The notes below the pieces were generated by a model. The model made no database searches. It was not told where the DNA came from and saw nothing but the letters and a program-made list of their open reading frames with translations. DNA of 17,947 bases from a virus. Where the stretch lies: positions 1-17,947 of IMG/VR virus record IMGVR_UViG_3300045988_020090; one strand, given 5' to 3'. Each line of letters starts with the position of its first letter. Position 1 is the stretch's first letter. A program made the translations under genes and the position numbers. Shown here one piece after another: positions 1-17,401 of the stretch.

Positions 1-26
1 TTCCCTACACGACGCTCTTCCGATCT
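1..26. other. Sequencing-adapter remnant (Illumina TruSeq universal/Read-1 adapter tail); not phage DNA
   Basis: Bases 1-26 read TTCCCTACACGACGCTCTTCCGATCT, which I recognise as the 3' part of the Illumina universal adapter. The exact reverse complement closes the window. Confidence 0.95.
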
Positions 27-60
27 GGGCCCCCAGCAGCTATCCTTTTTCCACAACTGT

Positions 61-266
61 TCTGTTGTGTGTTTTGCTATTGCTCTCTGTTCTGTGTTTT
101 TTGTTGTCGTTCTTGTTGTGCTTTTTTTGTCCCGTCTCTGGTGCTTCTTGTGTTTGCTGGCTTTTTTTCGTTGTCGTTTCTGCTTGTTGTTTTGTCTGCG
201 TTTTTTATCTCGTTGTTTTTTTATCGTTTTTTGTGTTGTTGGGTGTGTTGTGTTTTGTGGTGGTGT
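61..266 (+). other. A-depleted T/G-rich tract inside the left ITR (mirror, T-depleted on the + strand, at 17682-17887)
   Basis: My hand count finds 3 A in 206 nt (positions 79, 207, 223) and none at all in 80-206. T runs of 6-7 nt start at 97, 122, 162, 201, 216 and 227. Confidence 0.9.
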
Positions 267-300
267 ATTATGTAATTGTCAGCCAAGGAGTACGGAAAGG

Positions 301-528
301 ATGGTAGTTGAGATGACTGGTATTTCTGTTCGTTTTGAGACTGGTGAGCTGGGCGGAAAGGAGGTTCTTATCTTGCGCTATCGTCTAAGGGGGTTTGTGA
401 TTGTAAAATTCTTCACTGAAACGTATGATTCTTGTTCTGGTGAGGTTTGTTCGGCTATGGATAATATGGTGGGCTTTGTTTATCGCTTGATGGGGTTTGT
501 TTCTGAGCGTCCTGAGTACTCCTATTGA
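301..528 (+). CDS. Hypothetical ITR-encoded protein, 75 aa (left copy)
   Basis: An ATG at 301 is preceded by AAGGAG (285-290) and GGAAAGG (294-300). From MVVEMTGISVRFETGELGGKEV onward the sequence has normal protein-like composition. This contrasts with the C/F/L/V-only upstream part of ORF 67-528, which is a no-stop artefact of the A-free tract. Confidence 0.5.
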   Translation: MVVEMTGISVRFETGELGGKEVLILRYRLRGFVIVKFFTETYDSCSGEVCSAMDNMVGFVYRLMGFVSERPEYSY

Positions 529-550
529 AAAAGAGTGAAGGTGATAGATA

Positions 551-811
551 ATGTGGTGTTTTACTGTTACGCCTGATGATTTTACGGTGTTCGAGTTCAC
601 GTCTGAGTATGTGGGGTCGTATGGGCCATATCCGGCGGATACGTTTAAGAAGGCGCTGGATGGCGTGCTTGACGTTGTTCGCCATGCGTTTGACGGGTTT
701 GATGTGTATGCTGGTTTTGCTTATTCCTCGTTTGACACAAAAACGGGGTTTTTGAATGGTGTTGTTGAAGTGCGTTTGTCGTTTGAAGGGGGATTTGATG
801 ATGGCAAATGA
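551..811 (+). CDS. Hypothetical early protein, 86 aa
   Basis: First ORF after the ITR boundary. A GAAGGTGA Shine-Dalgarno at 537-544 lies 6 nt before the ATG at 551. It is co-directional and tightly packed with its neighbours. I recognise no family. Confidence 0.55.
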   Translation: MWCFTVTPDDFTVFEFTSEYVGSYGPYPADTFKKALDGVLDVVRHAFDGFDVYAGFAYSSFDTKTGFLNGVVEVRLSFEGGFDDGK

Positions 812-1043
812 TGAAGTTGTGGCTGTGGTTCCATCCAAGTTTGAGTCTGGTGATGTGTGTCTGGTGTATTGCCCTTATAATCGGACGTATGAACTGCGGT
901 ATGCGGTGCGGTCTCAGGATGGCGGCGGGCGTCGTTTGGTTTGGTCGGCTGTGACGTTTGATGCGTGTGATTATGCGCAGGTGGCTCATATGTTGGTTGA
1001 TGCGAGGGCGTTGGCTGATACGTCGTTGATTGAGAGGTGTTGA
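798..1043 (+). CDS. Hypothetical early protein, about 81 aa
   Basis: ORF 756-1043. The in-frame ATG pair at 798/801 follows GAAGGGGG (785-792) and overlaps the stop of the upstream gene (809-811), which suggests translational coupling. The start choice is uncertain. Confidence 0.5.
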   Translation: MMANDEVVAVVPSKFESGDVCLVYCPYNRTYELRYAVRSQDGGGRRLVWSAVTFDACDYAQVAHMLVDARALADTSLIERC

Positions 1044-1045
1044 TT

Positions 1046-1555
1046 ATGAAGAGCATTGATGACCGCACAAATTGGTTTGATGATGGTGTTCTGGATGATG
1101 ACCGTGTGCGCCGTGTCGTTCGTGGTCGCCGACGTAATCTGCATTTGCGTGAGTACAATAAAGGTGAGGGTGATTGGGAGACGTTTTGCCGTACTATAGT
1201 ACTGCTCAAGGACTTTTACAAGCCCCAAGGTGGTCAGGTGGCGTTTGCTGACAGTATCGAACATGCGGCGAACATTTGTCTAAGCATCTCGCCAAGTTCG
1301 TCAATGTACGCCGCATTGTCTCGAACTCAGGACATTGAAATGTTGTCCGGGCTTATTTATTGTCCGGCGATGGTGGCGTGGTGCGCGGTCTGTCATGTCA
1401 AGGGCGCGTCGTGCTATGAGATGTGCCGGACGTGGGAGGGTGATGAGTTCGCTCAGACTGTCATCAAAATTGCGTGTCTCCGTTTTGACAATCTGTCCGG
1501 CGTGCAGTATACTGATGGAGACATTACGAGAATGGCACGACAACAGCAATATTAA
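1046..1555 (+). CDS. Hypothetical early protein, 169 aa, with a Cys cluster
   Basis: ORF 1037-1555. The ATG at 1046 follows GAGAGG (1032-1037) and comes just after the upstream stop (1041-1043). It contains CPAMVAWCAVCHVKGASCYEMC, a possible metal-binding cluster. I recognise no family. Confidence 0.6.
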   Translation: MKSIDDRTNWFDDGVLDDDRVRRVVRGRRRNLHLREYNKGEGDWETFCRTIVLLKDFYKPQGGQVAFADSIEHAANICLSISPSSSMYAALSRTQDIEMLSGLIYCPAMVAWCAVCHVKGASCYEMCRTWEGDEFAQTVIKIACLRFDNLSGVQYTDGDITRMARQQQY

Positions 1556-1566
1556 GATAAGGTGGT

Positions 1567-1884
1567 ATGATTATGGCATATATTAAGCGAGCCAAGCACT
1601 ATAGCATTGTGCGCGGCGTTACGCGCAGTGAAAACGGCGAACTCGTGGACACCGAAGTAGTCGTGGATGGCGCGTGCCGCACGCCTGACATGGCTATGAA
1701 AAAAGCCCGTAAGATTAACAGGGACATGCTACCCATGTCCGCCGAGTATCATGCTCAAGCAACGCGCATGGATGAGGCAATCTATTGGGCTAATTGCGAA
1801 TTTGGGGACGATACCATCATCGACTATCCGGGGTCGGTTAACGGCAACGTGGTTGAAGATGATATCATCTCCGAGGAAAAATAA
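1567..1884 (+). CDS. Hypothetical early protein, 105 aa, acidic C-terminus (p6-like only by position and size)
   Basis: AAGGTGG (1559-1565) precedes the ATG at 1567. The C-terminus is VVEDDIISEEK. It sits directly upstream of the SSB candidate, as phi29 gene 6 precedes gene 5 in the direction of transcription. I detect no sequence similarity. Confidence 0.55.
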   Translation: MIMAYIKRAKHYSIVRGVTRSENGELVDTEVVVDGACRTPDMAMKKARKINRDMLPMSAEYHAQATRMDEAIYWANCEFGDDTIIDYPGSVNGNVVEDDIISEEK

Positions 1885-1914
1885 TTACTAACCCTATAAG
1901 GAAAGGCAACACAA

Positions 1915-2352
1915 ATGGCTGACAACGAACTGACCGTAATGAACGGCAACAATTTTGCGGCTAACGGCGCTAACGCCGTATCCCATTTCTTTAACACTGA
2001 CACTATGGATGGCAAAATGGCGCTCTATAACGCCATGCAGACCGCCGACAAGGTAGACGAACATCTTAATGAGCCATTGCATGTGACCAACGTGCTTGCG
2101 CAGGCCATCGAGGTTGCCAACCAAGAGACCGGTGAAATCAACTCATCTACCCGTGTCGTTATCCACGCGGAAGAGGGCGATTTCGCCGCCGCCTCCCCCA
2201 CGCTGGCACACGCTTTCGGTAATCTGTTCGCGATTTTCGGCACGCCGGACACGTGGGACCATCCGCTTGTCCTCAAGGTGGTGGAAAAGAAGAGCCGCCG
2301 TGGATTCAAGTTCTTCGACCTTGAACTAGTGTCGGAAAAAGACCGTGGATAG
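1915..2352 (+). CDS. Candidate single-stranded DNA-binding protein (phage ORF34/Phage_SSB-like), 145 aa
   Basis: AAGGAAAGG lies upstream of the ATG at 1915. The layout resembles phage SSBs of the lactococcal ORF34 type as I remember them: N-terminal NELT..NG, a central V.V....E.....GE core, and a C-terminal FGTPDTWDHPL..V....SRRGFKFFDLELV. Its position matches phi29 gene 5. This is unverified recollection. Confidence 0.4.
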   Translation: MADNELTVMNGNNFAANGANAVSHFFNTDTMDGKMALYNAMQTADKVDEHLNEPLHVTNVLAQAIEVANQETGEINSSTRVVIHAEEGDFAAASPTLAHAFGNLFAIFGTPDTWDHPLVLKVVEKKSRRGFKFFDLELVSEKDRG

Positions 2353-2416
2353 AATATTTGTCTATACCATATGATAGCATGGCAATGTCCCTATAGGGAT
2401 GTTGCCGCCAAACTCA

Positions 2417-2457
2417 CCCCTCGCCGTTTTTTCATCCTTGCGGCGAGGGGTGTTTTA
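2417..2457 (+). terminator. Hairpin with a short T run after the SSB candidate (preceded by a second imperfect hairpin at 2381-2406)
   Basis: CCCCTCGCCG (2417-2426) pairs with CGGCGAGGGG (2441-2450) across a 14-nt loop and is followed by TGTTTTA. GGCAATGTCCCTA/TAGGGATGTTGCC (2381-2406) pairs with two G-U wobbles. Confidence 0.5.
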
Positions 2458-2476
2458 CACTCATAAGGGGGAGGCA

Positions 2477-3421
2477 GTGGCAAAACGTAAAACCAACCGA
2501 CGCGCCAACAATCTGAAACGCAACGCCGCAATCAGGTCGGCACAGGTACGCCGAGAGCAAGCGGTCAGGGATTACAGTACCGGACATCTCCCCAAGCAAA
2601 TCACCGAAACGTTTCTCGGAAAACTCAGCGCCCAACAGCTCGAACAGGTTGCCCGCCGCGTCGGACAGGAATTCGGGGAACAACAGCAAGCCTTGAAGGC
2701 CAGAGATAACGAGCCGTATCAGGTTGTCCCAGATGTGCATATTACGAAACTCGATAGGGAGTTAGCGGCGCGCCCGTTGATTACCGACGCGGAAATCGCC
2801 GCCGCCCCGTCGAAACGTCGGAAGACGTTACGACAGCAACAGCGCCGCCGCATCGAGGTGCGGCAGAAAATCAAACGCGCCCAACAATTCGACGCATTGA
2901 GCATGGCCTGCTACACGGTGGGCGAAATACGTGAAATGGAACGCGCGGGAGAATCCCCGTTTGACGTGTTGGGTACTCATACGGTTGGCGGTTCGGCGCG
3001 CGACGAACTCACACGCAACCGTGCGAACGTGTTCGGCTCGGAGCGCGGCATAAGCCACGCGCGTATGATGATACGAGAGGGAGGCAGGAGGGGACTTGAA
3101 CGTGAGATACTCGAATACGCCGGGCTTATAGGCCGAGCGCCATTACAGGCAGGAGCTAGGCAAATCTCGGGAAGTGAGGGGGTTTCGGATTTTGATAGGG
3201 TCTCGCAACAGCTTGAAGCGTTCGACTCCAACATCGCCCAGAAATTCGCGTCTTTGTCGAACCGTCAAAAACGATGGCTGATAAACAACACGAACTTCAG
3301 CACCGTTGTGCGGGAAGCCTCATGGTATAATGATAAAACACATAAATGGGAGACAAAAGCGGATGCAGGCGATGTAGAGACACGACTTGACGAATGGATG
3401 ACCAGCGCGGCACGACACTAA
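2477..3421 (+). CDS. Candidate terminal (priming) protein, 314 aa
   Basis: ORF 2399-3421. I prefer the GTG at 2477, which follows AAGGGGGAGG (2466-2474), because the longer version would read through the 2417-2450 hairpin. The N-terminus is strongly basic (AKRKTNRRANNLKRNAAIRSAQVRRE) and there is a second basic patch (SKRRKTLRQQQRRRIEVRQKIKR). It lies immediately upstream of the protein-primed polymerase, as phi29 gene 3 does. I see no sequence similarity to phi29 TP. Confidence 0.45.
   Translation: MAKRKTNRRANNLKRNAAIRSAQVRREQAVRDYSTGHLPKQITETFLGKLSAQQLEQVARRVGQEFGEQQQALKARDNEPYQVVPDVHITKLDRELAARPLITDAEIAAAPSKRRKTLRQQQRRRIEVRQKIKRAQQFDALSMACYTVGEIREMERAGESPFDVLGTHTVGGSARDELTRNRANVFGSERGISHARMMIREGGRRGLEREILEYAGLIGRAPLQAGARQISGSEGVSDFDRVSQQLEAFDSNIAQKFASLSNRQKRWLINNTNFSTVVREASWYNDKTHKWETKADAGDVETRLDEWMTSAARH
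3323..3331 (+). promoter_or_regulatory. Perfect extended -10 box TGgTATAAT, about 105 nt upstream of the polymerase start
   Basis: It reads TGGTATAAT at 3323-3331. There is no good -35 (TTGTGC at 3306-3311 is too close). It is one of only two TGnTATAAT matches I found on the + strand, and both precede gene starts. Confidence 0.3.
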
Positions 3422-3436
3422 AAAAAGGATGGAATT

Positions 3437-4897
3437 ATGCGAGAGCGTCGAGCGGCGGCAACAGACGGCGCAACACTCTTGACGGATGACGGCATGGAAC
3501 CATTGACGGCGAACGCCGTCATCCGGCTTACCATGTTCGACTATCATACGCGCGTATGGTGTGCCCATGGGTGGCAGGATATTAAGCCCATAGCCGCCGA
3601 ACTGTTGAAACGACTCCCCTTGCAATCGAATCCAGCCAAGGATGGTGTGTGGGGCACATTTAATATTCGCGGCCACTTCTATAGTTTCCGTGTACGCATG
3701 GGCGGTATCGCCGTGGATTTTGTGGATGTGCGTAATGTCACGCGTGATGATGGCTTGAATGTTTCACGTGAAACATTTGGAGGAACCACCGACTTGGAAA
3801 CCACGTGGAATATCGCGCAGGAATGCGCCGCGCTGAAACTCAGGGGCACGACCATAGCATCAATGGCAATGACCGACTATATCGATGGGGATTACGCCGG
3901 ATTCAAACGTCATTTTCCACCATTGGATAAAGAGGTTTATCATCGGATGCGCCCCGCCTACTATGGGGCGATAGTGTCCAGCAAGCCGGGCGAGTACCGG
4001 GATTGCCGAAGCTGGGATGTAAACAGTCTCTACCCGAGTATCATGCGCGACGCCCCCATGCCGGTAGGCTCGCCAATATGGTACGGCGGGGAATATCAAT
4101 ATGACCCTGATTATCCGCTCCATATCGATGTCATTGCATTTGATGCAAGGTTGAAAACGGGGAAAACGGCGACGCTCACCAATATTCTGCCCGTATGGGG
4201 GTATGAGGGCGAACGTTTGGATAGTACGCTGGGCGTCGTTACCATGCCCGTCACGGATGTGGATTGGGAAACGCTGACCGAAAACTACGATATTCACGTG
4301 TGGGAGCATGTCGGCGGCTGGAAGTTCCGTAAATCGCATGGACTTTATTACACCTACGTTGATAAATGGTTTCACGTGAAACAAACCGCAACCGGAGAGC
4401 GCAGGCAGATGGCGAAACTGTTATTAAACTCACTGGTAGGGAAATTCGGGGCCTCGCTCTACCGGCCCATGTTGCATCCAAAACCGTCTGCGGATGGTGG
4501 CGTGGATTTTACCGTGGACAAACCCGAGTCGGCTAACAGTCTGGCATGGTTGCCGACCGCCGCATATGTCAACGCCTACGGGCGACGAATATTGTCCCGG
4601 GCGATGAACGCGAACGCCGACCGCGTACTCTACGCCGATACCGATGGCATGATATTGGAAGGGTTGGCCGCGCCCTCAGGTATCGAAACGGATGACCGGA
4701 AACTAGGGGCGTGGAAAAACGACCATACCTACGAGAAGCTCCGTATCCTCGGCAATCGCAAATACTGCGGCGTGGAAACAGACGGCGACACCGTCATGCG
4801 TCTGAGCGGCGTGCACCGTGCCGCCCCCATCCCCTATGATGAGTTTCTTCCGGGGGCGCGTCATCTCAATGATGATGGCCACACTTTTATGCTATAA
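3437..4897 (+). CDS. Protein-primed family-B DNA polymerase (phi29 gp2-like), 486 aa
   Basis: - Motif A is WDVNSLYPSIM (D194 at nt 4016).
- Motif B is KLLLNSLVGKFG (K327).
- Motif C is LYADTDGMIL (nt 4631 onward).
- A KxY-like motif is GNRKYCG.
- Long colinear matches to remembered phi29 sequence include FPPLDKEV.. against FPTLSLGLDKEV.., PVGSPIWYGGEYQYDPDYPLHI against PYGEPIVFEGKYVWDEDYPLHI, and KLGAWKNDHTYEKL against KLGYWAHESTFKRA. Confidence 0.93.
   Translation: MRERRAAATDGATLLTDDGMEPLTANAVIRLTMFDYHTRVWCAHGWQDIKPIAAELLKRLPLQSNPAKDGVWGTFNIRGHFYSFRVRMGGIAVDFVDVRNVTRDDGLNVSRETFGGTTDLETTWNIAQECAALKLRGTTIASMAMTDYIDGDYAGFKRHFPPLDKEVYHRMRPAYYGAIVSSKPGEYRDCRSWDVNSLYPSIMRDAPMPVGSPIWYGGEYQYDPDYPLHIDVIAFDARLKTGKTATLTNILPVWGYEGERLDSTLGVVTMPVTDVDWETLTENYDIHVWEHVGGWKFRKSHGLYYTYVDKWFHVKQTATGERRQMAKLLLNSLVGKFGASLYRPMLHPKPSADGGVDFTVDKPESANSLAWLPTAAYVNAYGRRILSRAMNANADRVLYADTDGMILEGLAAPSGIETDDRKLGAWKNDHTYEKLRILGNRKYCGVETDGDTVMRLSGVHRAAPIPYDEFLPGARHLNDDGHTFML
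3758..3777. repeat. 20-bp perfect palindrome AATGTTTCACGTGAAACATT (copy 1 of the GTTTCACGTGAAAC motif)
   Basis: Read directly and self-complementary over all 20 nt. It lies inside the polymerase gene and encodes NVSRETF. Confidence 0.9.
4369..4382. repeat. 14-bp perfect palindrome GTTTCACGTGAAAC (copy 2)
   Basis: Read directly. It lies inside the polymerase gene but in a different codon phase from copy 1 (tgg ttt cac gtg aaa caa = WFHVKQ). Confidence 0.9.
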
Positions 4898-4898
4898 T
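4890..4898 (+). promoter_or_regulatory. Perfect extended -10 box TGcTATAAT overlapping the polymerase stop codon
   Basis: It reads TGCTATAAT at 4890-4898, and the polymerase TAA is at 4895-4897. The -35 is weak. The predicted start near 4905 would transcribe the structured spacer and possibly the late genes. Confidence 0.4.
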
Positions 4899-4904
4899 AT
4901 CCGG

Positions 4905-5064
4905 TAGCGGGGTGTGCGTCCCAAGTCGATTCGATGGCCCGACCGTAAGGCAAGTCGGTAAGGCGATTCGGTCGGATGTAGACGTGCGTAGCCAGCGCCC
5001 AGCGACGGCAAGGGAACCCGCACAGCCTAGCAAACCGGCATGACGGCGTGATTGCCGTCATGCC
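4905..5064 (+). ncRNA. Candidate structured RNA (packaging pRNA analogue, or the 5' leader of the late operon)
   Basis: - This is a 187-nt gap with no ORF.
- An 11-bp perfect stem joins GGCATGACGGC (5037-5047) to GCCGTCATGCC (5054-5064) with loop GTGATT.
- A 7-bp stem joins CCGACCG (4939-4945) to CGGTCGG (4969-4975).
- Tandem 13-mers are TAAGGCAAGTCGG and TAAGGCGATTCGG (4946-4971).
- A tandem pair is CCAGCGC/CCAGCGA (4992-5005).
- GACGGC occurs twice (5004, 5042), and both copies are complementary to GCCGTC (5054). Confidence 0.3.
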
Positions 5065-5084
5065 ACTGACTTTAAGAGGTGATT

Positions 5085-5423
5085 ATGGACGATACCGAGG
5101 ACACCGAGCCGGACACCACGCCAGACGCCGAGCCGGACACGACCGCCGACGACAATACGCCGAACCCGGAGCTTGAAACGCAGGACAATGGCGAACCGGA
5201 GGATGCGGGCGACGACAAGGACGCCGACATGGCCAACCGTCTCAGCGCTTTGGAAGCGACCGTAGCGGAACTCTCCAAAACCATTGAGGCGATGCGCGAC
5301 GCCGCAGCCGACCACGTGCTGAACGATGGCCCGGACGGCGACACGACGCCGGAATCGGCTGAAATGACAGACGATGACTACAACGGCACTTACAGTACGT
5401 TCGATGATTTGTTTGAAGACTAA
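5085..5423 (+). CDS. Putative scaffolding protein (phi29 gp7-like by position), 112 aa
   Basis: AAGAGG (5074-5079) lies 5 nt before the ATG at 5085. The protein is very acidic (DDTEDTEPDTTPDAEPDTTADD...), with a central helical-looking segment (ANRLSALEATVAELSKTIEAMRDAAA). It is small and directly upstream of the capsid gene. Confidence 0.5.
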   Translation: MDDTEDTEPDTTPDAEPDTTADDNTPNPELETQDNGEPEDAGDDKDADMANRLSALEATVAELSKTIEAMRDAAADHVLNDGPDGDTTPESAEMTDDDYNGTYSTFDDLFED

Positions 5424-5445
5424 TGATTAGGAAGGATTGATTATC

Positions 5446-7182
5446 ATGTCAACTACTCCAGTGGTGACGCCGAAACAGCAGTTGCGACCGCTCACTGAAT
5501 TCAACAACGCGCAGATTCTCAATATGATTCGCAACGAGGCGTCGCCCGAATATCAGCGACGTATGCCCTCGGCCACCCAGATGAACATGGATAGGCAGAT
5601 GGCCACCCTCATGTCATCTACTCAGCTCAAGAACGAGTTTTATGCAGCGCTGGTGAACCGCATTGGCGGCACCTATGTGAACACATGGCGCTGGAACAAT
5701 CCGTTGAGTGTTTTCCAGCGTGCATCTCAGATGTATGGCGACACGTGGCAGGAAATCGCCGTAGGTATGCCGCTCGCACAGGTGTACGACCCGGACGCGG
5801 AATACTTGGGCGCGGATAATTTCCGTAAGTGGAAAATCGACGTAGACTCGCTGTATCATCGTCTGGATTTCGCCCACTTCTATCCGGCGACCACGGATGA
5901 CAAGACGCTCCAGCGCGCGTTCACCTCCGAAACCGGTCTGGCTTCGCTCACCTCGCAGATTCTCACCTCCTGTTACAATGCCGCCGAGGTTGACTTGTTT
6001 GAGGCCATGTGCCACCAGTTCGTTGAGTATGCGAAACTCGGCGGATACTGGCGCGTGCACATGAACAATGATTTGAACAACATGGGCAGTTCGGAAACCG
6101 ACGCGCGCGACATGTTGCGCCAGATTCGCGCATGGGCCGACACGCTGAAATTTGTATCCACTCGGTATAATGCGCGGCACATGCCGACATTTGCCCGCCC
6201 GGATGAGCTTGTGTTGTTCTGCTCCCCTGAAGTCAAGTCTGCGCTTGACGTGCAGGGTCTCGCCACGGTGTTCCAGCGTACGGATGCGGAGCCGACCATC
6301 GACCGGATTATCGTCATCCCGCAGGACAGGTTTGGCATGGACGGCGTGCAAGCCATCCTCACTACGGACAAGTTCCTGATTGACATTCCCGTTATCAACG
6401 AGATGACCCAGCAGACGAACCCGGTTAACATCAATTCGGTCAACCATTATCTACACGTCCAGCACATTATCAGCGTGTCCGGATTTGCCCCCGCCGTCAT
6501 GTTCTGGACGGGCGCGGGTTCCACCGCAAGCGTAGTGACGCCTACCGGTACGACGGCCAAGACGCCGACCTTCCAACTCAAGCTTGCCATGTACGGCGGT
6601 GGCGCGACTACGCCGGAGAATGTGGTGCGTGGCGGCGCTGTGCAGGTCACCGCCGATACGACCATCTCCAACGATGGTAAGGCCACGTTCCGCTCGGATG
6701 CTGTCGAGTACGCCATCGGTGATACCGCCAAGCCGAAGAGCGATTACACATACATTTCGCCCACCGGCGTGCTGGTGGTCGGCCTTGATGAGCCGAACAC
6801 CATTATTCCGATTACGGCCACGGCCCTGTATACAAATCCGGCGACACCTGAGGTGCCGGGCACCGTGTCCGCCGCCTTGGACGTGCCGGTGGTTGGCGAG
6901 GGTGTCATCGGATTCAATCCGTCGATTATCGCATCCATTGCCGTGACCGTCCCGGCAGTGACCGTGAATCATACGGCACAGGCGACCGCTACGGCGACCA
7001 TGATTGACGGCCGGACCGCCGACGTGACCGCGCAGGCCGCGTGGACGTCCGACACCCCAGTCAACGCCACGGTGTCCGAGTCGGGTGTCGTTGCGGGCGT
7101 CAGGGCGGGCTCGTCCAATATCACCGCAACCCTGTTCGGCGTGTCCGATAAGAAGAGCGTGACCGTGACGGCGGCCTCGTGA
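5446..7182 (+). CDS. Major capsid protein (phi29 gp8-like) with a C-terminal Big_2 Ig-like domain, 578 aa
   Basis: AGGAAGGA (5429-5436) precedes the ATG at 5446. Matches to remembered phi29 gp8 include FYAALVNRIG...NNPLSVF against FITSLVDRIG...NNPLKKF. Another is DDKTLQRAFTSE...ILTSCYNAAEVDLFE against DDSLKTAFVSW...IINAIYNSAEVDEYE. The C-terminal segment ...AAWTSDTPVNATVSESGVVAGVRAGSSNITATLFGVSDKKSVTV (about 6928-7179) is a typical Big_2 pattern. Confidence 0.9.
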   Translation: MSTTPVVTPKQQLRPLTEFNNAQILNMIRNEASPEYQRRMPSATQMNMDRQMATLMSSTQLKNEFYAALVNRIGGTYVNTWRWNNPLSVFQRASQMYGDTWQEIAVGMPLAQVYDPDAEYLGADNFRKWKIDVDSLYHRLDFAHFYPATTDDKTLQRAFTSETGLASLTSQILTSCYNAAEVDLFEAMCHQFVEYAKLGGYWRVHMNNDLNNMGSSETDARDMLRQIRAWADTLKFVSTRYNARHMPTFARPDELVLFCSPEVKSALDVQGLATVFQRTDAEPTIDRIIVIPQDRFGMDGVQAILTTDKFLIDIPVINEMTQQTNPVNINSVNHYLHVQHIISVSGFAPAVMFWTGAGSTASVVTPTGTTAKTPTFQLKLAMYGGGATTPENVVRGGAVQVTADTTISNDGKATFRSDAVEYAIGDTAKPKSDYTYISPTGVLVVGLDEPNTIIPITATALYTNPATPEVPGTVSAALDVPVVGEGVIGFNPSIIASIAVTVPAVTVNHTAQATATATMIDGRTADVTAQAAWTSDTPVNATVSESGVVAGVRAGSSNITATLFGVSDKKSVTVTAAS

Positions 7183-7188
7183 TATGAT

Positions 7189-7216
7189 GAGAGGGTGGCC
7201 GGTTGGCTACCCTCTC
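7189..7216 (+). other. Hairpin 1 of the post-capsid spacer
   Basis: GAGAGGGTGGCC (7189-7200) pairs with GGCTACCCTCTC (7205-7216). The stem is 12 bp with one G-U and the loop is GGTT. No T run follows. Confidence 0.7.
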
Positions 7217-7238
7217 TCACGGTGTGATGCGATACAAG

Positions 7239-7271
7239 GCCCGGAGCGCAAGCCACGTGAGCGCTCCGGGC
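7239..7271 (+). other. Hairpin 2 of the post-capsid spacer (loop contains CACGTG)
   Basis: GCCCGGAGCGC (7239-7249) pairs with GCGCTCCGGGC (7261-7271). The stem is 11 bp and the loop is AAGCCACGTGA. Confidence 0.7.
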
Positions 7272-7304
7272 ACTGTGACAGTCGCCTAATCTGCGATATA
7301 ATAA

Positions 7305-7340
7305 AAGGGAGTGTTTCACGTGAAACACTCCCTTCTTTAT
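7305..7340 (+). terminator. 30-bp perfect palindrome with a T-rich tail; terminator and/or operator (copy 3 of the GTTTCACGTGAAAC motif)
   Basis: AAGGGAGTGTTTCAC/GTGAAACACTCCCTT (7305-7334) is perfectly self-complementary and is followed by CTTTAT. The core GTTTCACGTGAAAC is at 7313-7326. A TATAAT hexamer sits at 7287-7292, just upstream. Confidence 0.65.
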
Positions 7341-7353
7341 GAAAAGGGATAGT

Positions 7354-9603
7354 ATGCTGAGAGATATCAACCCTAACGTTGAGGCGACGTTTAACTGGGC
7401 TCAATGGACGCCCAACACGTCGCTGAAACTCTGTAACGTGCCGTGGGACAGTAGTTACCGTGACCTGGCCCGGTTCGAATCACCGCAGAAACAACAGGAA
7501 TGGTTTGACCGAAGGCCCGGCATTGACAGGGTGCATGGAGTCATGCACATGTTCGGCCAACCCGTGCGCGTCGAACTGCCATTTAACGAGGCGTCCAACT
7601 ACAACTATGTCGTGGTGTATAACGATTACCCTGACTTGGAGTCGCCACGGTATTGGTATTATTTCATCAACCACGTGGATTACATCAATGCGTACACTAC
7701 TCAGCTCACTGTACAGTTGGACGTTTGGCAGTCGTTCCAGCATGTACTTAGGTTTGGTTCATGCTATGTGGTGCGAGGCCATATCGGCATTGCCAACGAA
7801 AACCAGATGACCGATTATGGTCGCAGTTATCTCGCACTACCCGAAGGGCTGGACACCGGTAGCGAAATGGTAACGGTGAACCAACAGTACAAGTCTCTTA
7901 TCGGCATGGACGGGAAAAATCTGAATTACGGCGTAATAGTCGTGAGCACGGTAGATTTGTCAGCGAACGCGGGCAGTCAGGAAAAACCGTCTCTCACTAC
8001 TGCGGGCGGCTCTCTGTTTGAGAACATGGCTAACGGTGCTGAAATACTGTACTTTAAGGACATCCAGTCCGTCCAAGTGTTTATGGGGGTGGGCTCTACT
8101 TTTTCATGGATAACACAGGGTATTGTAAACATGTACATGATACCCTCTTTGGATGATGACTTTCTTAAGCAATCCGGCTATGTCGTAGATAAGCTGTTTG
8201 GGAGAACACTCCCTTCGGAATTAAATAATCGTATCTACCGTTTCCCCCAGTCGGCCACAAATGCGCCCAGCAGATATGAAGACATTATTACCATTAATGA
8301 TTTTCGTGATAATTTTAATATCCCCAAACGTTATAAAAACCTTAAAAAACTCAAATGCTACCCCTATTCCACTGTTGAATGCACTTGCTTGAATGGCACT
8401 AATATCACCTATAAGCCCGAAAATATCCAAAGTGATAATCTGGTTATCAGAGAGGTGCATAATTACGCGCCCAATGGCGCGCGCTTGAACTTTTACCCGG
8501 TTGGGTACAATAAGGCGGGTGCAAGCGAGATCGCTCCTCTTGATGAAAACAATGGGTTGCCCATTGATAGCGGGGAAATGTTGGACGCCGCGTTTGGCAT
8601 CAGCAATTTCCCTCAATTTGTGATAGTCAACAATGGCGCACAGTTGGCAATGGCAAACAGTGCCTACACTCGTTCCTACAGTCAACAGTCCGCTGACTGG
8701 GCGTACCAAAAAGCGCAGATGGGCATCAGCCAGTCTCTTGCGGCCACGGCCATGCAAAACCAGTACAACACCCAAGCCAACAAACTCGCTATCGGCAACC
8801 GCAACGCCAATAACGCGATACAAGCGACCTCGCTTAACACCAGTCTGGACAGCACGACGTATATCAACAATCAGCGGGCTGACCTCGCACAGCTGAATAA
8901 CGTGTTTAACGGCGTGGTCGGGGTGGCGGGTAACGCCGCTTCGGGCAATGTCGGGGGCGCGGTATCGGCATTGGGCGGTGCGGTCATGAATGGTGTCAAC
9001 ACTGAAGCAAACCGCAGTATCAACAATACCGCCGCCCAACTTTCCACGGCGAACTCGCTGAGTACCAACGCGGCCACAACAAGTCAGGCCAACACATACG
9101 GCTCTCAGACTACAGCGCTTTCAAACCAGTTGGCCCAGAACATGGCGGATATGAACGCGGATTACGCGCAACGTTCCGCGTTCGGAGACTATCAAAACAC
9201 CATTGCGGGTATCAATGCACAGGTACAGCAGATGCAATTAACACCCCCGACCACATCTGGAGCCATCGGCGGAGACGGTTTTAACCTCGCGAACGGTATT
9301 GTCGGGGTGTTGGTTCGATTCAAGACGTGCGCACCCTCAGCTCTGCGGAGCGTCGGAGAGTACATGTTGCGTTACGGGTATTTTATCCAACGTTTCATCA
9401 CGCCGCCGCAATCGCTGGAATGTATGACAAAATTCACCTACTGGCAGATGCAAGAGTGTTACGTGCGAGGTGATTTGCCCGAGCAGTATCGGCAGACCAT
9501 TAAAGGCGTGTTCGAGTCTGGGGTTACTGTATGGACTAACCCGGATGATATCGGCGTGACCGATTGGGCGGATAACGACCCATTGCCGGGCATCTCGTTC
9601 TAG
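7354..9603 (+). CDS. Tail knob / distal tube protein (phi29 gp9-like), 749 aa
   Basis: I prefer the ATG at 7354 (AAAGGGA at 7343-7349) over 7339, which abuts the hairpin. Matches to remembered phi29 gp9:
- CNVPWDSSYRD...WF against ADVPFSNDYKN...WF.
- RYWYYFINHVDY...QLDVWQSF against KWFYAFVTELEF...EIDVLQTW.
- KCYPYSTVE against MMYPYCVTE.
- The C-terminal LRYGYFIQR....GDLPEQYRQTIKGVFESGVTVWTNPDDIG against HKYGYKINR....[28 protein letters not shown]. Confidence 0.88.
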   Translation: MLRDINPNVEATFNWAQWTPNTSLKLCNVPWDSSYRDLARFESPQKQQEWFDRRPGIDRVHGVMHMFGQPVRVELPFNEASNYNYVVVYNDYPDLESPRYWYYFINHVDYINAYTTQLTVQLDVWQSFQHVLRFGSCYVVRGHIGIANENQMTDYGRSYLALPEGLDTGSEMVTVNQQYKSLIGMDGKNLNYGVIVVSTVDLSANAGSQEKPSLTTAGGSLFENMANGAEILYFKDIQSVQVFMGVGSTFSWITQGIVNMYMIPSLDDDFLKQSGYVVDKLFGRTLPSELNNRIYRFPQSATNAPSRYEDIITINDFRDNFNIPKRYKNLKKLKCYPYSTVECTCLNGTNITYKPENIQSDNLVIREVHNYAPNGARLNFYPVGYNKAGASEIAPLDENNGLPIDSGEMLDAAFGISNFPQFVIVNNGAQLAMANSAYTRSYSQQSADWAYQKAQMGISQSLAATAMQNQYNTQANKLAIGNRNANNAIQATSLNTSLDSTTYINNQRADLAQLNNVFNGVVGVAGNAASGNVGGAVSALGGAVMNGVNTEANRSINNTAAQLSTANSLSTNAATTSQANTYGSQTTALSNQLAQNMADMNADYAQRSAFGDYQNTIAGINAQVQQMQLTPPTTSGAIGGDGFNLANGIVGVLVRFKTCAPSALRSVGEYMLRYGYFIQRFITPPQSLECMTKFTYWQMQECYVRGDLPEQYRQTIKGVFESGVTVWTNPDDIGVTDWADNDPLPGISF

Positions 9604-9618
9604 TGCTATACTGGAGGC

Positions 9619-10575
9619 ATGTCTAGGTCGAGGAAAAATCAGAATCGTAGGGGCGGCGCGTTGCACCCGCGTGGCAATTACGCCAAGGCACGCGCCGCCG
9701 ACCTTGACGCAATGTATTATCACCTGCTGACCGAACTGGCACTGAACCGGTTCAGTTGGCGGGGGCTACCGCCTACAGTGGATGAACGATGGTTGGAAAT
9801 GTGTCTGTGTGAATACGGGTGCGCGTTGTTTTTCGAGGACAAACGTATGGGCCGGTTCCTCGCTACGCAAGCTGGCTATCAAGGCCGATTGAACGTGTAT
9901 GATAATCCAACGTGCTTTGAGCCGGTGGGCGTCAACTATCATTACAGGCAACTCAAGGCGGGCCGTGAATGCATTCCGATTTGGGATAACCGGATGCGCA
10001 TGGGTTTCAAGGATATCTTATGGCAGTACGCGAGACGCCTTGCCGACATTGACAAGGCATATGACGTGAACTTGGAGAGCCTGAAACTGCCGACCATCAT
10101 CACCGCCGACCCGCGCACCAAGCTCACCGTGCAGAACATGTTGCAACAGCGGCAGGACGGGCAGGATTATATCATCGGCTATGATTCACTCGACCCCGGT
10201 AGCATGTTCCAACCGTGGCCGAACACGACACCTTACCTGTTGGATAAGTTCGTCCAGCAAAAAACGCAAGTGACTAATGAGGTACTGGGATATTTGGGCA
10301 TCCAATCCAGCGGCACCGAGAAAAAAGAGCGGCTCATTTCCGATGAGGTGGCGCAGTCCAACGAGAAAACGGACGTGTTCCGCCTGAGTTTTCTCAAGGC
10401 CCGGCAGGCGGCGGCGACGGAAATTAACCGGTTGTGGCCGCAACTTAACATCTGGGTGGAGTATGCGGACGCGCAAAGCTCCGGCGTGCCCAACGCGCTG
10501 GATTCCAGCGCGACCGGTACGACGGATATTGACATGCCCGCCTCGTATGATGCGGGTATTGGAGGTGTGTTGTAA
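9619..10575 (+). CDS. Head-tail connector / portal (phi29 gp10-like upper collar), 318 aa
   Basis: The basic N-terminus SRSRKNQNRR resembles phi29 ARKRSNTYRS. FSWRGLPPTVDERWLE matches FEWENLPPTINPSFLE, and GTEKKERLISDEVAQSNEKTD matches [21 protein letters not shown]. GGAGG (9613-9617) lies only 1 nt before the ATG, which is unusual spacing. Confidence 0.92.
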   Translation: MSRSRKNQNRRGGALHPRGNYAKARAADLDAMYYHLLTELALNRFSWRGLPPTVDERWLEMCLCEYGCALFFEDKRMGRFLATQAGYQGRLNVYDNPTCFEPVGVNYHYRQLKAGRECIPIWDNRMRMGFKDILWQYARRLADIDKAYDVNLESLKLPTIITADPRTKLTVQNMLQQRQDGQDYIIGYDSLDPGSMFQPWPNTTPYLLDKFVQQKTQVTNEVLGYLGIQSSGTEKKERLISDEVAQSNEKTDVFRLSFLKARQAAATEINRLWPQLNIWVEYADAQSSGVPNALDSSATGTTDIDMPASYDAGIGGVL

Positions 10576-10808
10576 TGATGACCTGTGACGCCATGGTAAG
10601 GCTTGTACGTGAAATGTATGAAGTCGCCGATAAAATCAGTAAGGCGGAAGAAGCTCTGGACAGCTATGAAAACGGGGGCTTGTCCATGTCCGGCCAAGCC
10701 GCTGGTCTACTGGAAAAACAAGTTGTCGCAATGAAAACATACTATGATATCGTCGCCGCACGTATTGGCCACCAAACGAGGGAGGCCACATATGGCACAG
10801 AGTTTTAG
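10575..10808 (+). CDS. Hypothetical small protein, 77 aa, between connector and lower collar
   Basis: The ATG overlaps the connector stop (TAATG at 10573-10577) and the 3' end overlaps the next gene by 17 nt. The composition is helical and charged. I recognise no family. Confidence 0.5.
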   Translation: MMTCDAMVRLVREMYEVADKISKAEEALDSYENGGLSMSGQAAGLLEKQVVAMKTYYDIVAARIGHQTREATYGTEF

Positions 10809-11586
10809 CGCTTACGCGATGACAACGCCCGGCGAGTACACGGAAACCCTCGGCAATCTCATTGCATTCGGATACGACACGGACGCCAGACTGCATCTCA
10901 GCGACGACTACTACCCGATTTACCGAGAAGACCATCGCGCCGAATTGAATGAAAAGATCGTCCGCCATTACGCGCTTAGGGAGATTGGTCAGGAAACCGC
11001 CCAACAGTTCATTTTTTACTTGGGGATGACGATGGCGGAAATCATGCCATATTTTAATGAGCGCTACAGGACGCTAGCGTTGAAATATGACCCATTGAAC
11101 ACTATGGAAATAGTCAGTGAAAGCCTGTCCAATACCGTAGCCCAGTCCAGCGGCAAAACCAGCGCCTCTCAGGATAGTGCGACCCGAAGCTCCTCGGACG
11201 GCACCAGCTCAAGTAGCACCAAGTCCCAGTCTTACGACTCGGAAGTGCCCGCAACCGGCGTGCAAGGTGATTTTGCCCGATACGCGACTCATGCCAATCA
11301 GGCGCAAGCAGATACGGACGGCAGTAGCCATAGCACGCAAGACACCTCCTCTCAGTCCCATAGTACATCCAGCACGGAATGGCAACACGACGCTACGGAT
11401 GGGAGCACCAAATCCCACACGTCGGGCCGCTCCCAGTCCGCCATGAGCCTGATACAGGAGTACCGACAGGCGATTATCAATGTGGACATGGAAATTGTGC
11501 GGAGCCTCGAACCGTGTTTCATGCAAATATGGGGCTCGTATGATACTATTTTCAGTAACTGCCATAACTATGGAGAATGGGAGTAA
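10792..11586 (+). CDS. Lower collar protein (phi29 gp11-like), 264 aa
   Basis: ORF 10744-11586. The ATG at 10792 follows GAGGGAGG (10778-10785). The segment REIGQETAQQFIFYLGMTMAEIMPYFNERY fits the lower-collar signature I remember (REIG.ET...F......M.EIMPYYN.LY). Its position after the connector agrees. There is a central S/T/Q/D-rich low-complexity stretch. Confidence 0.72.
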   Translation: MAQSFSAYAMTTPGEYTETLGNLIAFGYDTDARLHLSDDYYPIYREDHRAELNEKIVRHYALREIGQETAQQFIFYLGMTMAEIMPYFNERYRTLALKYDPLNTMEIVSESLSNTVAQSSGKTSASQDSATRSSSDGTSSSSTKSQSYDSEVPATGVQGDFARYATHANQAQADTDGSSHSTQDTSSQSHSTSSTEWQHDATDGSTKSHTSGRSQSAMSLIQEYRQAIINVDMEIVRSLEPCFMQIWGSYDTIFSNCHNYGEWE

Positions 11587-11588
11587 TC

Positions 11589-12224
11589 ATGGCTGCCATT
11601 AATGCGCTGATTCCACGGCAACGCCTGTCTGACGGGGTACCCACGTCCGTACCGTTCACGTATCGGGACGGATTGACCACGTTGCAATTGATTGAATGCC
11701 TACGCCACAATCTCGACACCCTCCAATGCGATTTGAGCAGGCTGGAGAAGGCCACGTCCGACCTCGCGGCATCTGTGGACAAGACTCTTGCGGATACCGC
11801 AACCCAGCTCAACAAGAATATGGCCGCGTTGCGCGCGGAACTGCTGGCCCTGATACACGAAATGGAGCAACAGGGCGTGGCAACCTCCCCCGTGTACGGC
11901 ACCACGCAACCGCTCGGGGACGTGCTTGGCGGCATATACGACAATGCGCGCAATCATGGACTGTTCTGGGGTGATTACGATAACATGCAGTTGACCGCTC
12001 AGGAATACGATGGGCTTACGCTTGGTGCCCGCGAATACGATTTACGCGCCACCGCCGTGGATAATTGCGTGCCCGGTGATTTTCCGGGCCGCCCCCAATT
12101 CCCGTATGGAAAATCCATGCCCGAAAACCCGCCCGCTGACATGGCGTATATCACGCAATCCGAAGCGGATGCACGCTATATCGAACGCAACCCGACCGCA
12201 GACAATTTCGATAAGAAAGGATAA
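11589..12224 (+). CDS. Hypothetical structural protein with a coiled-coil segment (tail appendage module), 211 aa
   Basis: ORF 11577-12224. The ATG at 11589 follows GGGAG (11579-11583). A heptad-like segment reads LDTLQCDLSRLEKATSDLAASVDKTLADTATQLNKNMAALRAELLALIHEME. The structural role is inferred only from its location between the lower collar and the fibre. Confidence 0.45.
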   Translation: MAAINALIPRQRLSDGVPTSVPFTYRDGLTTLQLIECLRHNLDTLQCDLSRLEKATSDLAASVDKTLADTATQLNKNMAALRAELLALIHEMEQQGVATSPVYGTTQPLGDVLGGIYDNARNHGLFWGDYDNMQLTAQEYDGLTLGAREYDLRATAVDNCVPGDFPGRPQFPYGKSMPENPPADMAYITQSEADARYIERNPTADNFDKKG

Positions 12225-12230
12225 TCACCC

Positions 12231-13706
12231 ATGTCCACAACACAGCACACCGGACACTACAATCTGCCGACGTTTGGAGATAATCCGAACGACCGTCCGT
12301 CATGGCGTGGCGATTTCACCGACGCAATGACGAAAATCGATAATCAGATGTACGCCAACGCGACCAACATCACCACGGCGACGGCGGCGGCGAACAACGC
12401 GACCACGGCGGCGAGCAAGGCAGCCGAGACGGCGGGCGGCGCACAGTCCACAGCCGATGACGCCGTGGCCCGATTGGACGCGCTCGGCGCAACCGGCAAT
12501 ACGGCGGCAGGTCAGCTTAAAACCAAGATCGACACCACGTCCACCGGGCTGAATGCGGTGAAATCCGACCTCAGCGTCTTCAAGACCTCCACCAATGGGA
12601 ATATTGCCTCATTGCAGAGCAAGAATACGGAAATCGAGAATAATTTAACCAGTATCACTTCATCGGTTCACGCCAACACAACCGGCATAACGGGCATTGA
12701 AGCGAATTTGAACGCGCTTCACGCCGATTCCACCACTAACGCGGCAACGCTATATAACACCATTCAGAACAGTTCTCGTGTTCTTGGCGTTAATCAGCCG
12801 TTCGTGTCTCGCGGCTCAAATATCATCGTGACTTTTGGTGATTCCTACGCCGACACCACGAACACTAGAAGCTGGGCATACATGCTCGCTCAAAAGCTGG
12901 GGTGGACGTTGCATAATTACGCAAAAAGCGGTGCCGGATACATCAGTCCGAACACCACTTACATGAGCGAGTTCAGCACAGCCAAGGCGGATACGTCCTA
13001 TGATCATGATGATGTATCGTTGGTGGTCATTGGAGGCTCTCGTAACGGCAACGACGGGTATTCGGGGACAGTCAAAACAGCCGCGCTGGAACTGTTTCAA
13101 GGAGTAAGCGGTGAATATCCCAATGCGCGAATCATCGCGGTACCGTTGCTATGGGATAAAACCCCGGTGTCAGGGTATTGGCGTTATAACGCCGCAAGCA
13201 TTGACGAGGCGGCGATACTGGCCGGAGTGGAATCCATACCGTGGGCATGGACGTGGAATCTTGGACGCGAAAACGCATTCGATAGTGAGAATATCCACCC
13301 CAACGAGCTGGGTACCAACGTCATCGTAAACTATATCATGCGATACATGCTCGGCGCGTACAATGGCCGACATGAGGTGTTCGTGTGGCGACCCGAGTCA
13401 AACCCTGCGGAATTTGTTCTTACCGTGGACGCAAGCGCGGGAACTATCTCATATGGTCTGTCGGTGGCGGGAGACGTCACGCCAGCGAAGTACACGGACG
13501 TGAGCGGACTGCCAATGTGGGCGTGGAACGCGTCGGATGAGACAAATCAGGGGCGGGCGTGGGTGGCGTCCATCACCAACGGCGCTACAAACACAACACT
13601 GTTCAAAATTGGCACTGACGGCCATTTTGGATGGCAGGGTTACACGACCAACCCCACGGCAACCCCTAACGGATTGGCTGGAGCGCAATTTACCAGAGCG
13701 TGGTAA
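12231..13706 (+). CDS. Tail fibre / appendage protein with an SGNH (GDSL) hydrolase domain, 491 aa
   Basis: - The N-terminal fibre-anchor-like motif is HYNLPTFGDNPNDRPSWRGDFTDAMTKID.
- A long A/T/N-rich coiled region follows.
- SGNH block I is IIVTFGDSYAD (Ser codon at 12843).
- Block III is VVIGGSRNGND.
- Block V is DSENIHPNELG (His codon at 13296). Confidence 0.75.
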   Translation: MSTTQHTGHYNLPTFGDNPNDRPSWRGDFTDAMTKIDNQMYANATNITTATAAANNATTAASKAAETAGGAQSTADDAVARLDALGATGNTAAGQLKTKIDTTSTGLNAVKSDLSVFKTSTNGNIASLQSKNTEIENNLTSITSSVHANTTGITGIEANLNALHADSTTNAATLYNTIQNSSRVLGVNQPFVSRGSNIIVTFGDSYADTTNTRSWAYMLAQKLGWTLHNYAKSGAGYISPNTTYMSEFSTAKADTSYDHDDVSLVVIGGSRNGNDGYSGTVKTAALELFQGVSGEYPNARIIAVPLLWDKTPVSGYWRYNAASIDEAAILAGVESIPWAWTWNLGRENAFDSENIHPNELGTNVIVNYIMRYMLGAYNGRHEVFVWRPESNPAEFVLTVDASAGTISYGLSVAGDVTPAKYTDVSGLPMWAWNASDETNQGRAWVASITNGATNTTLFKIGTDGHFGWQGYTTNPTATPNGLAGAQFTRAW

Positions 13707-13723
13707 CACGATTGGTGTTAACG

Positions 13724-13751
13724 ATACCCCACGGCCATTGCCGTGGGGTAT
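13724..13751 (+). terminator. Hairpin after the fibre gene
   Basis: ATACCCCACGG (13724-13734) pairs with CCGTGGGGTAT (13741-13751). The stem is 11 bp, the loop is 6 nt, and ACTGTTATTAT follows. Confidence 0.5.
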
Positions 13752-13760
13752 ACTGTTATT

Positions 13761-14975: not shown

Positions 14976-14977
14976 CA

Positions 14978-15015
14978 CAGTGACAAACCGGTAGATATAT
15001 ACCGGTTTGTCACTG
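14978..15015 (+). terminator. 16-bp perfect hairpin between the tail lysin and the ATPase gene
   Basis: CAGTGACAAACCGGTA (14978-14993) pairs with TACCGGTTTGTCACTG (15000-15015). The loop is GATATA and TTGTAT follows. Confidence 0.6.
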
Positions 15016-15027
15016 TTGTATGGTAGT

Positions 15028-16134: not shown

Positions 16135-16143
16135 GGAATATAT

Positions 16144-16509: not shown

Positions 16510-16518
16510 GAAGTAATC

Positions 16519-17328: not shown

Positions 17329-17335
17329 CACACAC

Positions 17336-17371
17336 AAAAAGCCTCTAGGCATATAGCCTAGGGGCTTTTTT
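17336..17371. terminator. Rho-independent terminator, potentially bidirectional
   Basis: AAAAA is followed by GCCTCTAGGC (17341-17350), which pairs with GCCTAGGGGC (17356-17365) with one G-U, and then by TTTTTT (17366-17371). The A tract on one side and T tract on the other let it serve both strands. Confidence 0.8.
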
Positions 17372-17401
17372 CTATATCTTAGCTCAAAACTCCTGCTCAG
17401 A

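Follow-up and report, generated by a model that had tools for sequence, protein, structure and literature searches.

Putative host-type parS sites in a family of phi29-like phages from the human gut

Introduction

A palindrome that occurs three times in a small virus genome, twice within one gene and in two different codon phases, raises the question of which protein reads it and why the virus should keep several copies. The genome in question, hereafter the window, is the whole 17,947-nucleotide stretch of IMG/VR virus record IMGVR_UViG_3300045988_020090 (positions 1 to 17,947), a complete linear ~18-kb genome of a phi29-like podophage, and the palindrome lies in its DNA polymerase gene and in the spacer between its capsid and tail genes. 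A first-pass annotation of the window had drawn attention to the repeat and had offered several possible roles for it, namely the operator of a dimeric regulator, an RNA hairpin, or the recognition site of a nuclease or methylase. Here we describe evidence that the palindrome is, by its sequence, the canonical chromosomal-type parS, on which the bacterial partition protein ParB (Spo0J) nucleates, and we consider it likely that the copies are ParB-binding sites kept by selection.

Three copies of a chromosomal-type parS

Exact matches to the 14-mer GTTTCACGTGAAAC were found at 3761, 4369 and 7313 (Table 1). A search allowing up to two mismatches returned the same three matches only, against 0.09 +/- 0.28 in dinucleotide-preserving shuffles, and none of 200 shuffles reached three; both the copies with their coordinates and the non-random recurrence claimed in the first-pass annotation are thus confirmed. 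The flanks of the three copies share no similarity outside the palindrome. Both intragenic copies are located in the family-B polymerase gene, where they encode different peptides in different phases, as had been noted: the first is read as NVSRETF (AAT GTT TCA CGT GAA ACA TTT) and the second, just upstream of the polymerase KxxxNSxxG motif, as WFHVKQ (TGG TTT CAC GTG AAA CAA). The third occupies the spacer before the tail gene, whose ATG is at 7354. Weaker relatives of the palindrome had also been pointed out (CCACGTGG at 3801 and 7671, ATTCACGTG at 4292 and a hairpin loop at 7254), and they are indeed present, but the hexamer CACGTG that they share is not enriched (10 copies compared with 8.0 +/- 2.9 expected, at least 10 being reached in 59 of 200 shuffles), and for this reason they are chance occurrences.

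A full-text literature search with the 16-mer TGTTTCACGTGAAACA listed papers that deal almost exclusively with ParB and parS. The parS consensus, the 16-bp palindrome TGTTNCACGTGAAACA, was taken from a review table and from a Hi-C study of gut bacteria. In the review table, TGTTNCACGTGAAACA is the parS of Bacillus subtilis and of the actinobacterium Corynebacterium glutamicum, and GTTTCACGTGAAAC, exactly the 14-mer noted here, is that of Mycobacterium smegmatis. The Hi-C study searched with the same 16-mer and reported ParABS homologues and 1-10 parS sites in 12 of 12 genomes, one of them from a Bifidobacterium, and a survey of 100 actinobacterial genomes reported ParABS in all; host chromosomes carry about 1-20 parS sites each. 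Two of the window sites match the consensus at 16 of 16 positions and the other at 15. The phage phi29 served as a positive control and gave four perfect TGTTTCACGTGGAACA sites, together with weaker matches, in the same scan. Situated on a complete phage genome and not close to the origin of a chromosome, the window sites have the sequence of parS and are not chromosomal centromeres. The proposal of an operator for a dimeric phage or host regulator therefore stands in part: a dimeric DNA-binding protein, possibly encoded by the host, is the likely reader, but the sequence is a predicted ParB-binding parS and not an unknown operator. Several known types of operator (CcpA cre, Cra/FruR, Rex, CRP/GlxR, the LexA Cheo box, PadR and GntR) were set aside on informal inspection, their half-site order or spacing being the opposite.

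Table 1. Coordinates of the palindromes, the associated elements and the main genes in the window.
Feature	Position	Strand	Description
Copy 1, extended	3758-3777		AATGTTTCACGTGAAACATT, perfect 20-bp palindrome
Copy 2	4369-4382		GTTTCACGTGAAAC
Copy 3, extended	7305-7334		AAGGGAGTGTTTCACGTGAAACACTCCCTT, perfect 30-bp palindrome
parS-1	3760-3775	.	TGTTTCACGTGAAACA, 16/16 against chromosomal parS consensus; polymerase gene, read (N)VSRET
parS-2	4368-4383	.	GGTTTCACGTGAAACA, 15/16; polymerase gene, read W-F-H-V-K-Q
parS-3	7312-7327	.	TGTTTCACGTGAAACA, 16/16; intergenic, centre of the 30-bp palindrome
Promoter-like site, sigma-70-type	7275-7302	+	GTGACA-16-TATAAT, 11/12 consensus positions
parS-3 hairpin	7305-7343	+	13-bp stem, ACGU loop, then U-rich tail CUUCUUUAU (RNA fold)
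phi29-type SSB	1915-2352	+	
340-aa protein in the terminal-protein position	2399-3421	+	assigned from gene order only
Protein-primed family-B polymerase	3437-4897	+	Pfam DNA_pol_B_2
phi29-type major capsid protein	5437-7182	+	
Tail knob	7354-9603	+	
Connector	9619-10575	+	
Lower collar	10744-11586	+	
GDSL-domain protein	12231-13706	+	
CHAP-domain protein	13743-14975	+	
gp16 packaging ATPase	15007-16134	+	
Holin	16144-16509	+	
Amidase	16519-17328	+	

Constraint on the polymerase sites

Relatives were collected by a polymerase search of IMG/VR, in which 80 of 114 confirmed relatives were loci of the same family, with polymerases 88-97% identical at the amino acid level and 81-96% at the nucleotide level. 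For 78 distinct polymerase sequences, the diversity at each site was compared with the expectation for its degeneracy class and evaluated by permutation of random sites. The seven synonymous positions in the 14-bp core retain on average 0.37 of the expected diversity (p = 0.002, phylogeny not corrected), the four in parS-1 lying at 0.28-0.48 and the three in parS-2, besides the N position, at 0.29-0.53. The synonymous position that corresponds to the N of the consensus (4372, in parS-2) is free to vary, with T and C in 59 and 19 sequences and a diversity 1.37 times the average, and the outermost base of site 1 (position 16) stands at 1.26 times; the commonest variant, GTTCCACGTGAAAC, is the form of parS found in B. 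subtilis. This pattern of variation mirrors the published information content of parS, and it would be unexpected for an arbitrary operator or hairpin.

The palindrome also has only a limited number of ways to be accommodated in a protein, since one of the three frames contains TGA and only the other two are open, leaving x-V-S-R-E-T-x and x-F-H-V-K-x as the only possible encodings. Because both of these are used, VSRET appears in the polymerase and again in a tail protein of relatives that has no homology to it. Moreover, parS-2 is limited to 15 of 16 positions because its first base, G, is supplied by the tryptophan codon TGG, which is invariant across the aligned polymerases. Neither VSRET nor the F-H-V residues are conserved in phi29 or in the polymerases of Bifidobacterium phages without parS, and the polymerase protein has accommodated the DNA motif at tolerant positions. 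Taken with the reduced synonymous diversity, this lack of residue conservation in distant polymerases bears out the earlier claim that conservation acts at the level of DNA and not of protein.

Conservation and turnover of sites in the family

Occupancy was scored in 79 genomes (78 relatives and the window), a site being defined by at most one mismatch to the consensus, and at least three sites were present in 54 of them. Site 1 in the polymerase gene is kept in 67 genomes and site 2 in 62. An intergenic site like that of the window is found in 37, and another 32, which are without the intergenic insert, have a site inside the tail gene at about codons 43-47, about 150 bp beyond the intergenic position. 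In 15 genomes, though not in the window, a further site comes directly behind the stop codon that ends the GDSL-domain gene and adjoins a terminator-like hairpin. Given that the site at the start of the tail gene is supplied in two ways and that sites arise elsewhere, selection would seem to act on having several copies, and not on one inherited accident.

The terminator-like hairpin just mentioned (ATACCCCACGGCCATTGCCGTGGGGTAT, 13724-13751 in the window) is placed between the GDSL-domain gene and that of the CHAP-domain protein; in relatives the stem persists with other loop and stem sequences, and parS stands immediately upstream in 15 of them. In three relatives (L055, L063 and L075) site 1 reads GTCTCACGTGAGAC, a symmetric double synonymous change that retains the palindrome, and this variant could be either decay or the tracking of a changed ParB specificity.

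The intergenic copy

The third site differs from the other two in its surroundings, for it forms the centre of a hairpin whose RNA fold is like that of an intrinsic terminator or 5' stem-loop. In eight relatives the same hairpin is followed by a tract of U6-8, and its outer arms vary partly in step among relatives (AAAGGAG/CTCCTTT, GGGGAG/CTCCCC) around an invariant core. Despite its 13-bp stem and U-rich tail, it was not listed by a terminator scan, and a search of the window against Rfam returned no known RNA family. The intragenic copies do not have the features of terminators, hairpin and U-rich tail being combined in the intergenic copy only.

Immediately upstream lies a near-consensus promoter-like site (Table 1), from which transcription would start at about 7309-7310, within the hairpin's left arm. 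The TATAAT box of this putative promoter is kept in L011 and L023, whose upstream sequence differs, and also in L003, which is without exactly the parS hairpin (7303-7335 in the window) and thereby reveals a 33-nt unit of insertion or deletion; in L013 and L019 both the promoter-like site and the 33-nt element are missing. It may be speculated that ParB bound at parS-3 also damps or otherwise affects transcription of the tail operon, which cannot be the general role of the sites because 32 genomes are without this promoter-associated arrangement.

The capsid-tail spacer as a whole contains three strong hairpins (RNA fold z = -8.4). The two others, located after the capsid gene (7184-7272), extend over 7188-7215 and 7240-7272, the latter with CACGTG in its loop, and are conserved in both types of spacer. 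At some distance, a 40-bp near-perfect palindrome (14977-15016, ACAGTGACAAACCGGTAGAT/ATATACCGGTTTGTCACTGT) lies between the CHAP-domain and ATPase genes and overlaps the TTG start of the ATPase open reading frame (ORF); it shows compensatory changes, is kept in 11 of 11 relatives whose loci reach so far, and may be a terminator or regulatory hairpin.

Candidate readers, host and genome

The 20 main ORFs of the window were scanned against Pfam and PHROGs, and among them no ParA/CbiA or ParB/ParBc domain was found, no helix-turn-helix DNA-binding domain was detected, and the Pfam scans revealed neither a methylase nor a nuclease domain. Homologues of most genes of the window, and of most of its small early genes, are present in the Bifidobacterium phages BD811P2, BD811P3, BP1 and BadAztec; in the cultured Bifidobacterium podophages BD811P2, BD811P3, BP1, BadAztec1 and BadAargau2 no parS-like site is seen even when three mismatches are allowed. 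Comparison with these parS-less relatives revealed no phage gene that co-occurs with parS. The only ORFs without a detectable homologue in them (67-528, 5079-5423 and 10575-10808) are small or doubtful and match no DNA-binding domain. Since a phage ParA or ParB domain is absent from the scanned ORFs and the genes have homologues in relatives without the site, the reader would most simply be the ParB of the host; the suggestion that one of the small early proteins binds the palindrome finds no support, most of their genes being shared with podophages that do not have it. Located between the genes for connector and collar, the ORF at 10575-10808 encodes 77 aa with a match to Pfam PF21825, a family labelled crAss001_48-related or 'Sequestin'.

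The host is probably a Bifidobacterium, as judged from the best cultured relatives. The closest of these are all Bifidobacterium podophages, with amino acid identities of 33-37% for the polymerase and 37-42% for the capsid protein, and the amidase domain reaches 70-80% amino acid identity to such phages and 81% nucleotide identity to the B. dentium phage BD811P2. The exact polymerase protein occurs on contigs from human gut metagenomes. No homologue of the lysin was found in 185,579 species genomes, nor did a polymerase-alignment scan of species-representative genome assemblies find the phage itself, as might be expected of a carrier state in isolates.

The recognisable genes all lie on the plus strand, and hallmark Pfam matches (Phi29_MCP, connector GP10, gp16 ATPase, Phi29 SSB and PolB) place the genome among phi29-like podophages. 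Its terminal inverted repeats measure 562 nt (1-562 and 17386-17947) and are 99% complementary, far longer than the 6 nt of phi29; they are rich in G and T, with short direct repeats inside them, and the mirrored ORFs that they contain are doubtful. The N-terminal domain of the polymerase (3437-3840) is about 90 residues shorter than that of phi29, and for most of the phi29 exonuclease catalytic residues (E14, D66, Y165/D169) no acidic or aromatic counterpart is aligned, either in the window or in the Bifidobacterium podophages, which could reflect either a loss of proofreading or just a poor alignment of this domain.

parS in other viruses

A scan of IMG/VR for the perfect 16-mer gave at least 120 loci, which were classed by profile searches. 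Among the 120 sampled, 27 (22%) are phi29-like podophages, only one of them from the family described here. The others range in G+C content from 0.32 to 0.48, their proteins are 21-42% identical to those of the window, and several carry 2-6 sites, mostly intergenic and beside ribosome-binding sites or T runs, some as tandem pairs 24-34 bp apart. Given one perfect 16-mer, the chance probability of a second within 15 kb is about 3.5e-6, and the multiple parS of these phages are therefore not accidental. Among phi29-like phages, carriage of host parS would seem to be a recurrent trait, and perhaps an enriched one.

Low-G+C gut phages of the phi29 type with 2-6 canonical sites are represented by L094, L087, L101, L187, L128, L146, L175 and L181, the last of which has a site in both terminal repeats (at 132 and 11579). 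Two viral contigs that are not phi29-like, L142 (10535-11462) and L102 (2657-3444), carry five perfect parS within about 0.8-0.9 kb, an array that looks like a plasmid-style centromere on another type of phage; L142 encodes an SU10-type portal and a terminase.

Comparison with known systems

Host parS on phi29-like phages is already known, and what is new is the setting in a human-gut family with a probably non-sporulating actinobacterial host. The phage phi29 is quoted as one that 'contains five parS sites', with Spo0J involved in entrapment of the genome in the spore (Meijer et al., 2005, as cited in PMC2731898). The window resembles phi29 and Nf as a protein-primed podophage of roughly 18-19 kb with several dispersed host-type parS and no phage ParA or ParB. 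However, its genes are all on one strand, its sites are found within the polymerase gene and where the capsid and tail genes meet, as opposed to the right half of the genome in phi29, and one of the window sites is fused with a promoter-like site and a terminator-like hairpin. The window is also without Spo0A boxes (TGTCGAA is not enriched, occurring once against 2.75 expected), and its host is probably a Bifidobacterium, which does not sporulate. Entrapment in the spore cannot be the purpose here, because the probable host forms no spores. Apart from phi29 and Nf, a literature search on host ParB in connection with lytic phages found nothing relevant.

The chromosomal parS/ParB systems of C. 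glutamicum, M. smegmatis and Streptomyces coelicolor share with the window the identical sequence (TGTTNCACGTGAAACA or GTTTCACGTGAAAC), the clustering of multiple copies, and the tolerated variation at the N position and the outer bases; on the virus, in contrast, the sites are not beside oriC, and the cognate ParB would be encoded on another replicon. Plasmid-prophages (N15 with sopAB and IR1-4, P1 with parABS, and the extrachromosomal mycobacteriophages) likewise have centromere palindromes scattered in a phage genome that exists as an extrachromosomal unit, but they are temperate and possess their own ParA and ParB with private centromeres, whereas the window has neither gene and uses the sequence of the host. 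A further parallel is the co-option of host regulators, such as the Spo0A boxes of phi29 and the CtrA boxes in phages of Alphaproteobacteria, where sites for a host protein in a lytic phage genome couple the phage to the state of the host cell, leading to lytic deferment (PMC9437464). Here the difference is that ParB is a segregation clamp and not a transcription factor, and any regulatory effect in the window would be secondary and is conjectural.

Proposed mechanism

Biochemical studies of ParB have established that its dimers nucleate on parS, bind cytidine triphosphate, close into clamps and slide to the neighbouring DNA, and that the clamps accumulate only when the DNA ends are blocked, for which bound protein can serve as a cap. 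In the scenario that we propose, each 16-bp palindrome would be a nucleation point for a dimer of host ParB (a member of the Spo0J family), bound through the helix-turn-helix domain of the protein. The ends of the linear 18-kb genome are probably capped by covalent terminal protein, so that the clamps would be retained, and from three or four sites (three within 3.6 kb in the window) ParB could coat much of the genome. Phage DNA coated in this way might be handled by the ParA/ParB of the host, and possibly by SMC, like a chromosome origin, that is, be positioned and shared between daughter cells, with possible SMC loading or polar anchoring. The phage would benefit whenever lytic development is delayed, in a carrier or lytic-deferment state in a non-sporulating host; such inheritance and positioning is proposed because Spo0A boxes are missing and the host probably does not sporulate. 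That the benefit consists in hitch-hiking on the partition machinery of the host is a reading that we hold tentatively and with slightly less than even confidence.

Several points weigh against the proposal. The phage appears strictly lytic and its host non-sporulating, with no obvious need for partition, which makes the benefit conjectural, and the ParB-binding sites are predicted from sequence. The three relatives with the GTCTCACGTGAGAC variant have no canonical site at all, and 25 of the 79 genomes have fewer than three. The synonymous constraint is significant and not extreme, the block of site 1 ranking 15th of 455 and that of site 2 27th of 456. Furthermore, the probable host is judged from the best cultured relatives, neither of the two genome scans having returned the lysin or the phage, and parS is dispensable in this phage group, as the cultured Bifidobacterium podophages without it demonstrate.

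Alternative explanations

The alternative that survives best accepts real ParB sites and assigns them another purpose, either as a sink that titrates the ParB of the host or as a timer for late genes, and not segregation of the phage. Hundreds of genome copies with 3-4 sites each would drain ParB from the host origin and disturb segregation, SMC loading and division, or ParB would be drained from the promoter of the tail operon, producing a late switch that depends on copy number. The overlap of parS-3 with the predicted start of a near-consensus promoter is compatible with this, as is the observation that most parS in other phi29-like phages are intergenic and directly upstream of ribosome-binding sites; with only about 1-20 sites on host chromosomes, a replicating phage would moreover outnumber them. 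On the other hand, two of the three sites are deep in the polymerase gene, 32 genomes of the family have the tail-gene site in place of a promoter-associated one, and in L003 the promoter is kept without the parS hairpin. Experiments on phi29, which demonstrated a role in genome segregation, provide no precedent for a sink or timer, and we regard this alternative as unlikely.

A second alternative is a dimeric regulator encoded by the phage, whose binding would form a roadblock within the polymerase gene and repress the tail promoter; the parS sequence would then be a coincidence. Perfect dyads, one of them overlapping a promoter-like site, would suit such an operator, and several small early ORFs have no known function. 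Yet coincidence is very unlikely to produce agreement at 16 of 16 positions with the site that ParB uses across bacterial phyla, the variable position is precisely the N of the ParB consensus, and the same 16-mer is present in unrelated phi29-like phages whose early genes and G+C content are very different. With no helix-turn-helix or ParB domain in the ORF scans and most early ORFs represented in parS-less relatives, a phage regulator is highly improbable.

Equally improbable is the explanation that the copies are purely structural, acting as terminators, in RNA processing or stability, or as DNA cruciforms without any protein that reads the sequence. It draws on the parS-3 hairpin with its U-rich tail, on the U6-8 tracts and the partly compensatory outer arms in relatives, and on the A and T runs that often flank parS in low-G+C relatives. 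For such structures complementarity would suffice. What is observed instead is one sequence of 14-16 nt that occupies five different positions, is read in two frames and is found again in unrelated phages, and whose core stays invariant while the outer arms change. The copies in coding sequence (two in the polymerase gene and that in the tail gene of relatives) have arms of only 5-8 bp, in the polymerase gene A/U-rich stems within essential coding regions, and RNA hairpins, as once suggested, cannot be their common function.

Finally, the absence of any function, whether through chance, recent internal duplication or the targeting of CACGTG, a known type II restriction site, by restriction or methylation, as the first-pass annotation had also considered, is effectively refuted and hardly credible, given the shuffles, the dissimilar flanks, the chance-level CACGTG count, the lack of a methylase or nuclease domain in the Pfam scans, the synonymous constraint, and sites that are conserved and re-created at new positions across the family.

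Implications for phi29-like phages

Recognition of the copies as putative ParB-binding parS sites turns an anonymous palindrome into a specific interface between host and virus, host ParB on phage DNA, which can be tested. Until now the parS of phi29 has been read as part of spore entrapment, and here the same perfect sites are under purifying selection in a large family from the human gut, whose closest cultured relatives infect non-sporulating Bifidobacterium, and are carried by many other phi29-like phages of the gut, suggesting that hijacking of the partition system may be a broader route of persistence for phages without integrase in dividing or non-growing hosts. In its widest form, the idea is that parS is a general device by which 'virulent' phi29-like phages load host ParB and engage ParABS and SMC, so as to maintain a heritable carrier state without integrase or par genes and, through the tail promoter, to time a late switch; we consider this possible but doubtful. 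For practical purposes, at least two canonical parS on a small linear phage genome would be a candidate marker of such an interaction, and annotation calls for caution, because pipelines that infer a plasmid or a temperate phage from the presence of parS can be misled. More generally, the finding bears on how virulent phages may coexist stably with their hosts in the gut.

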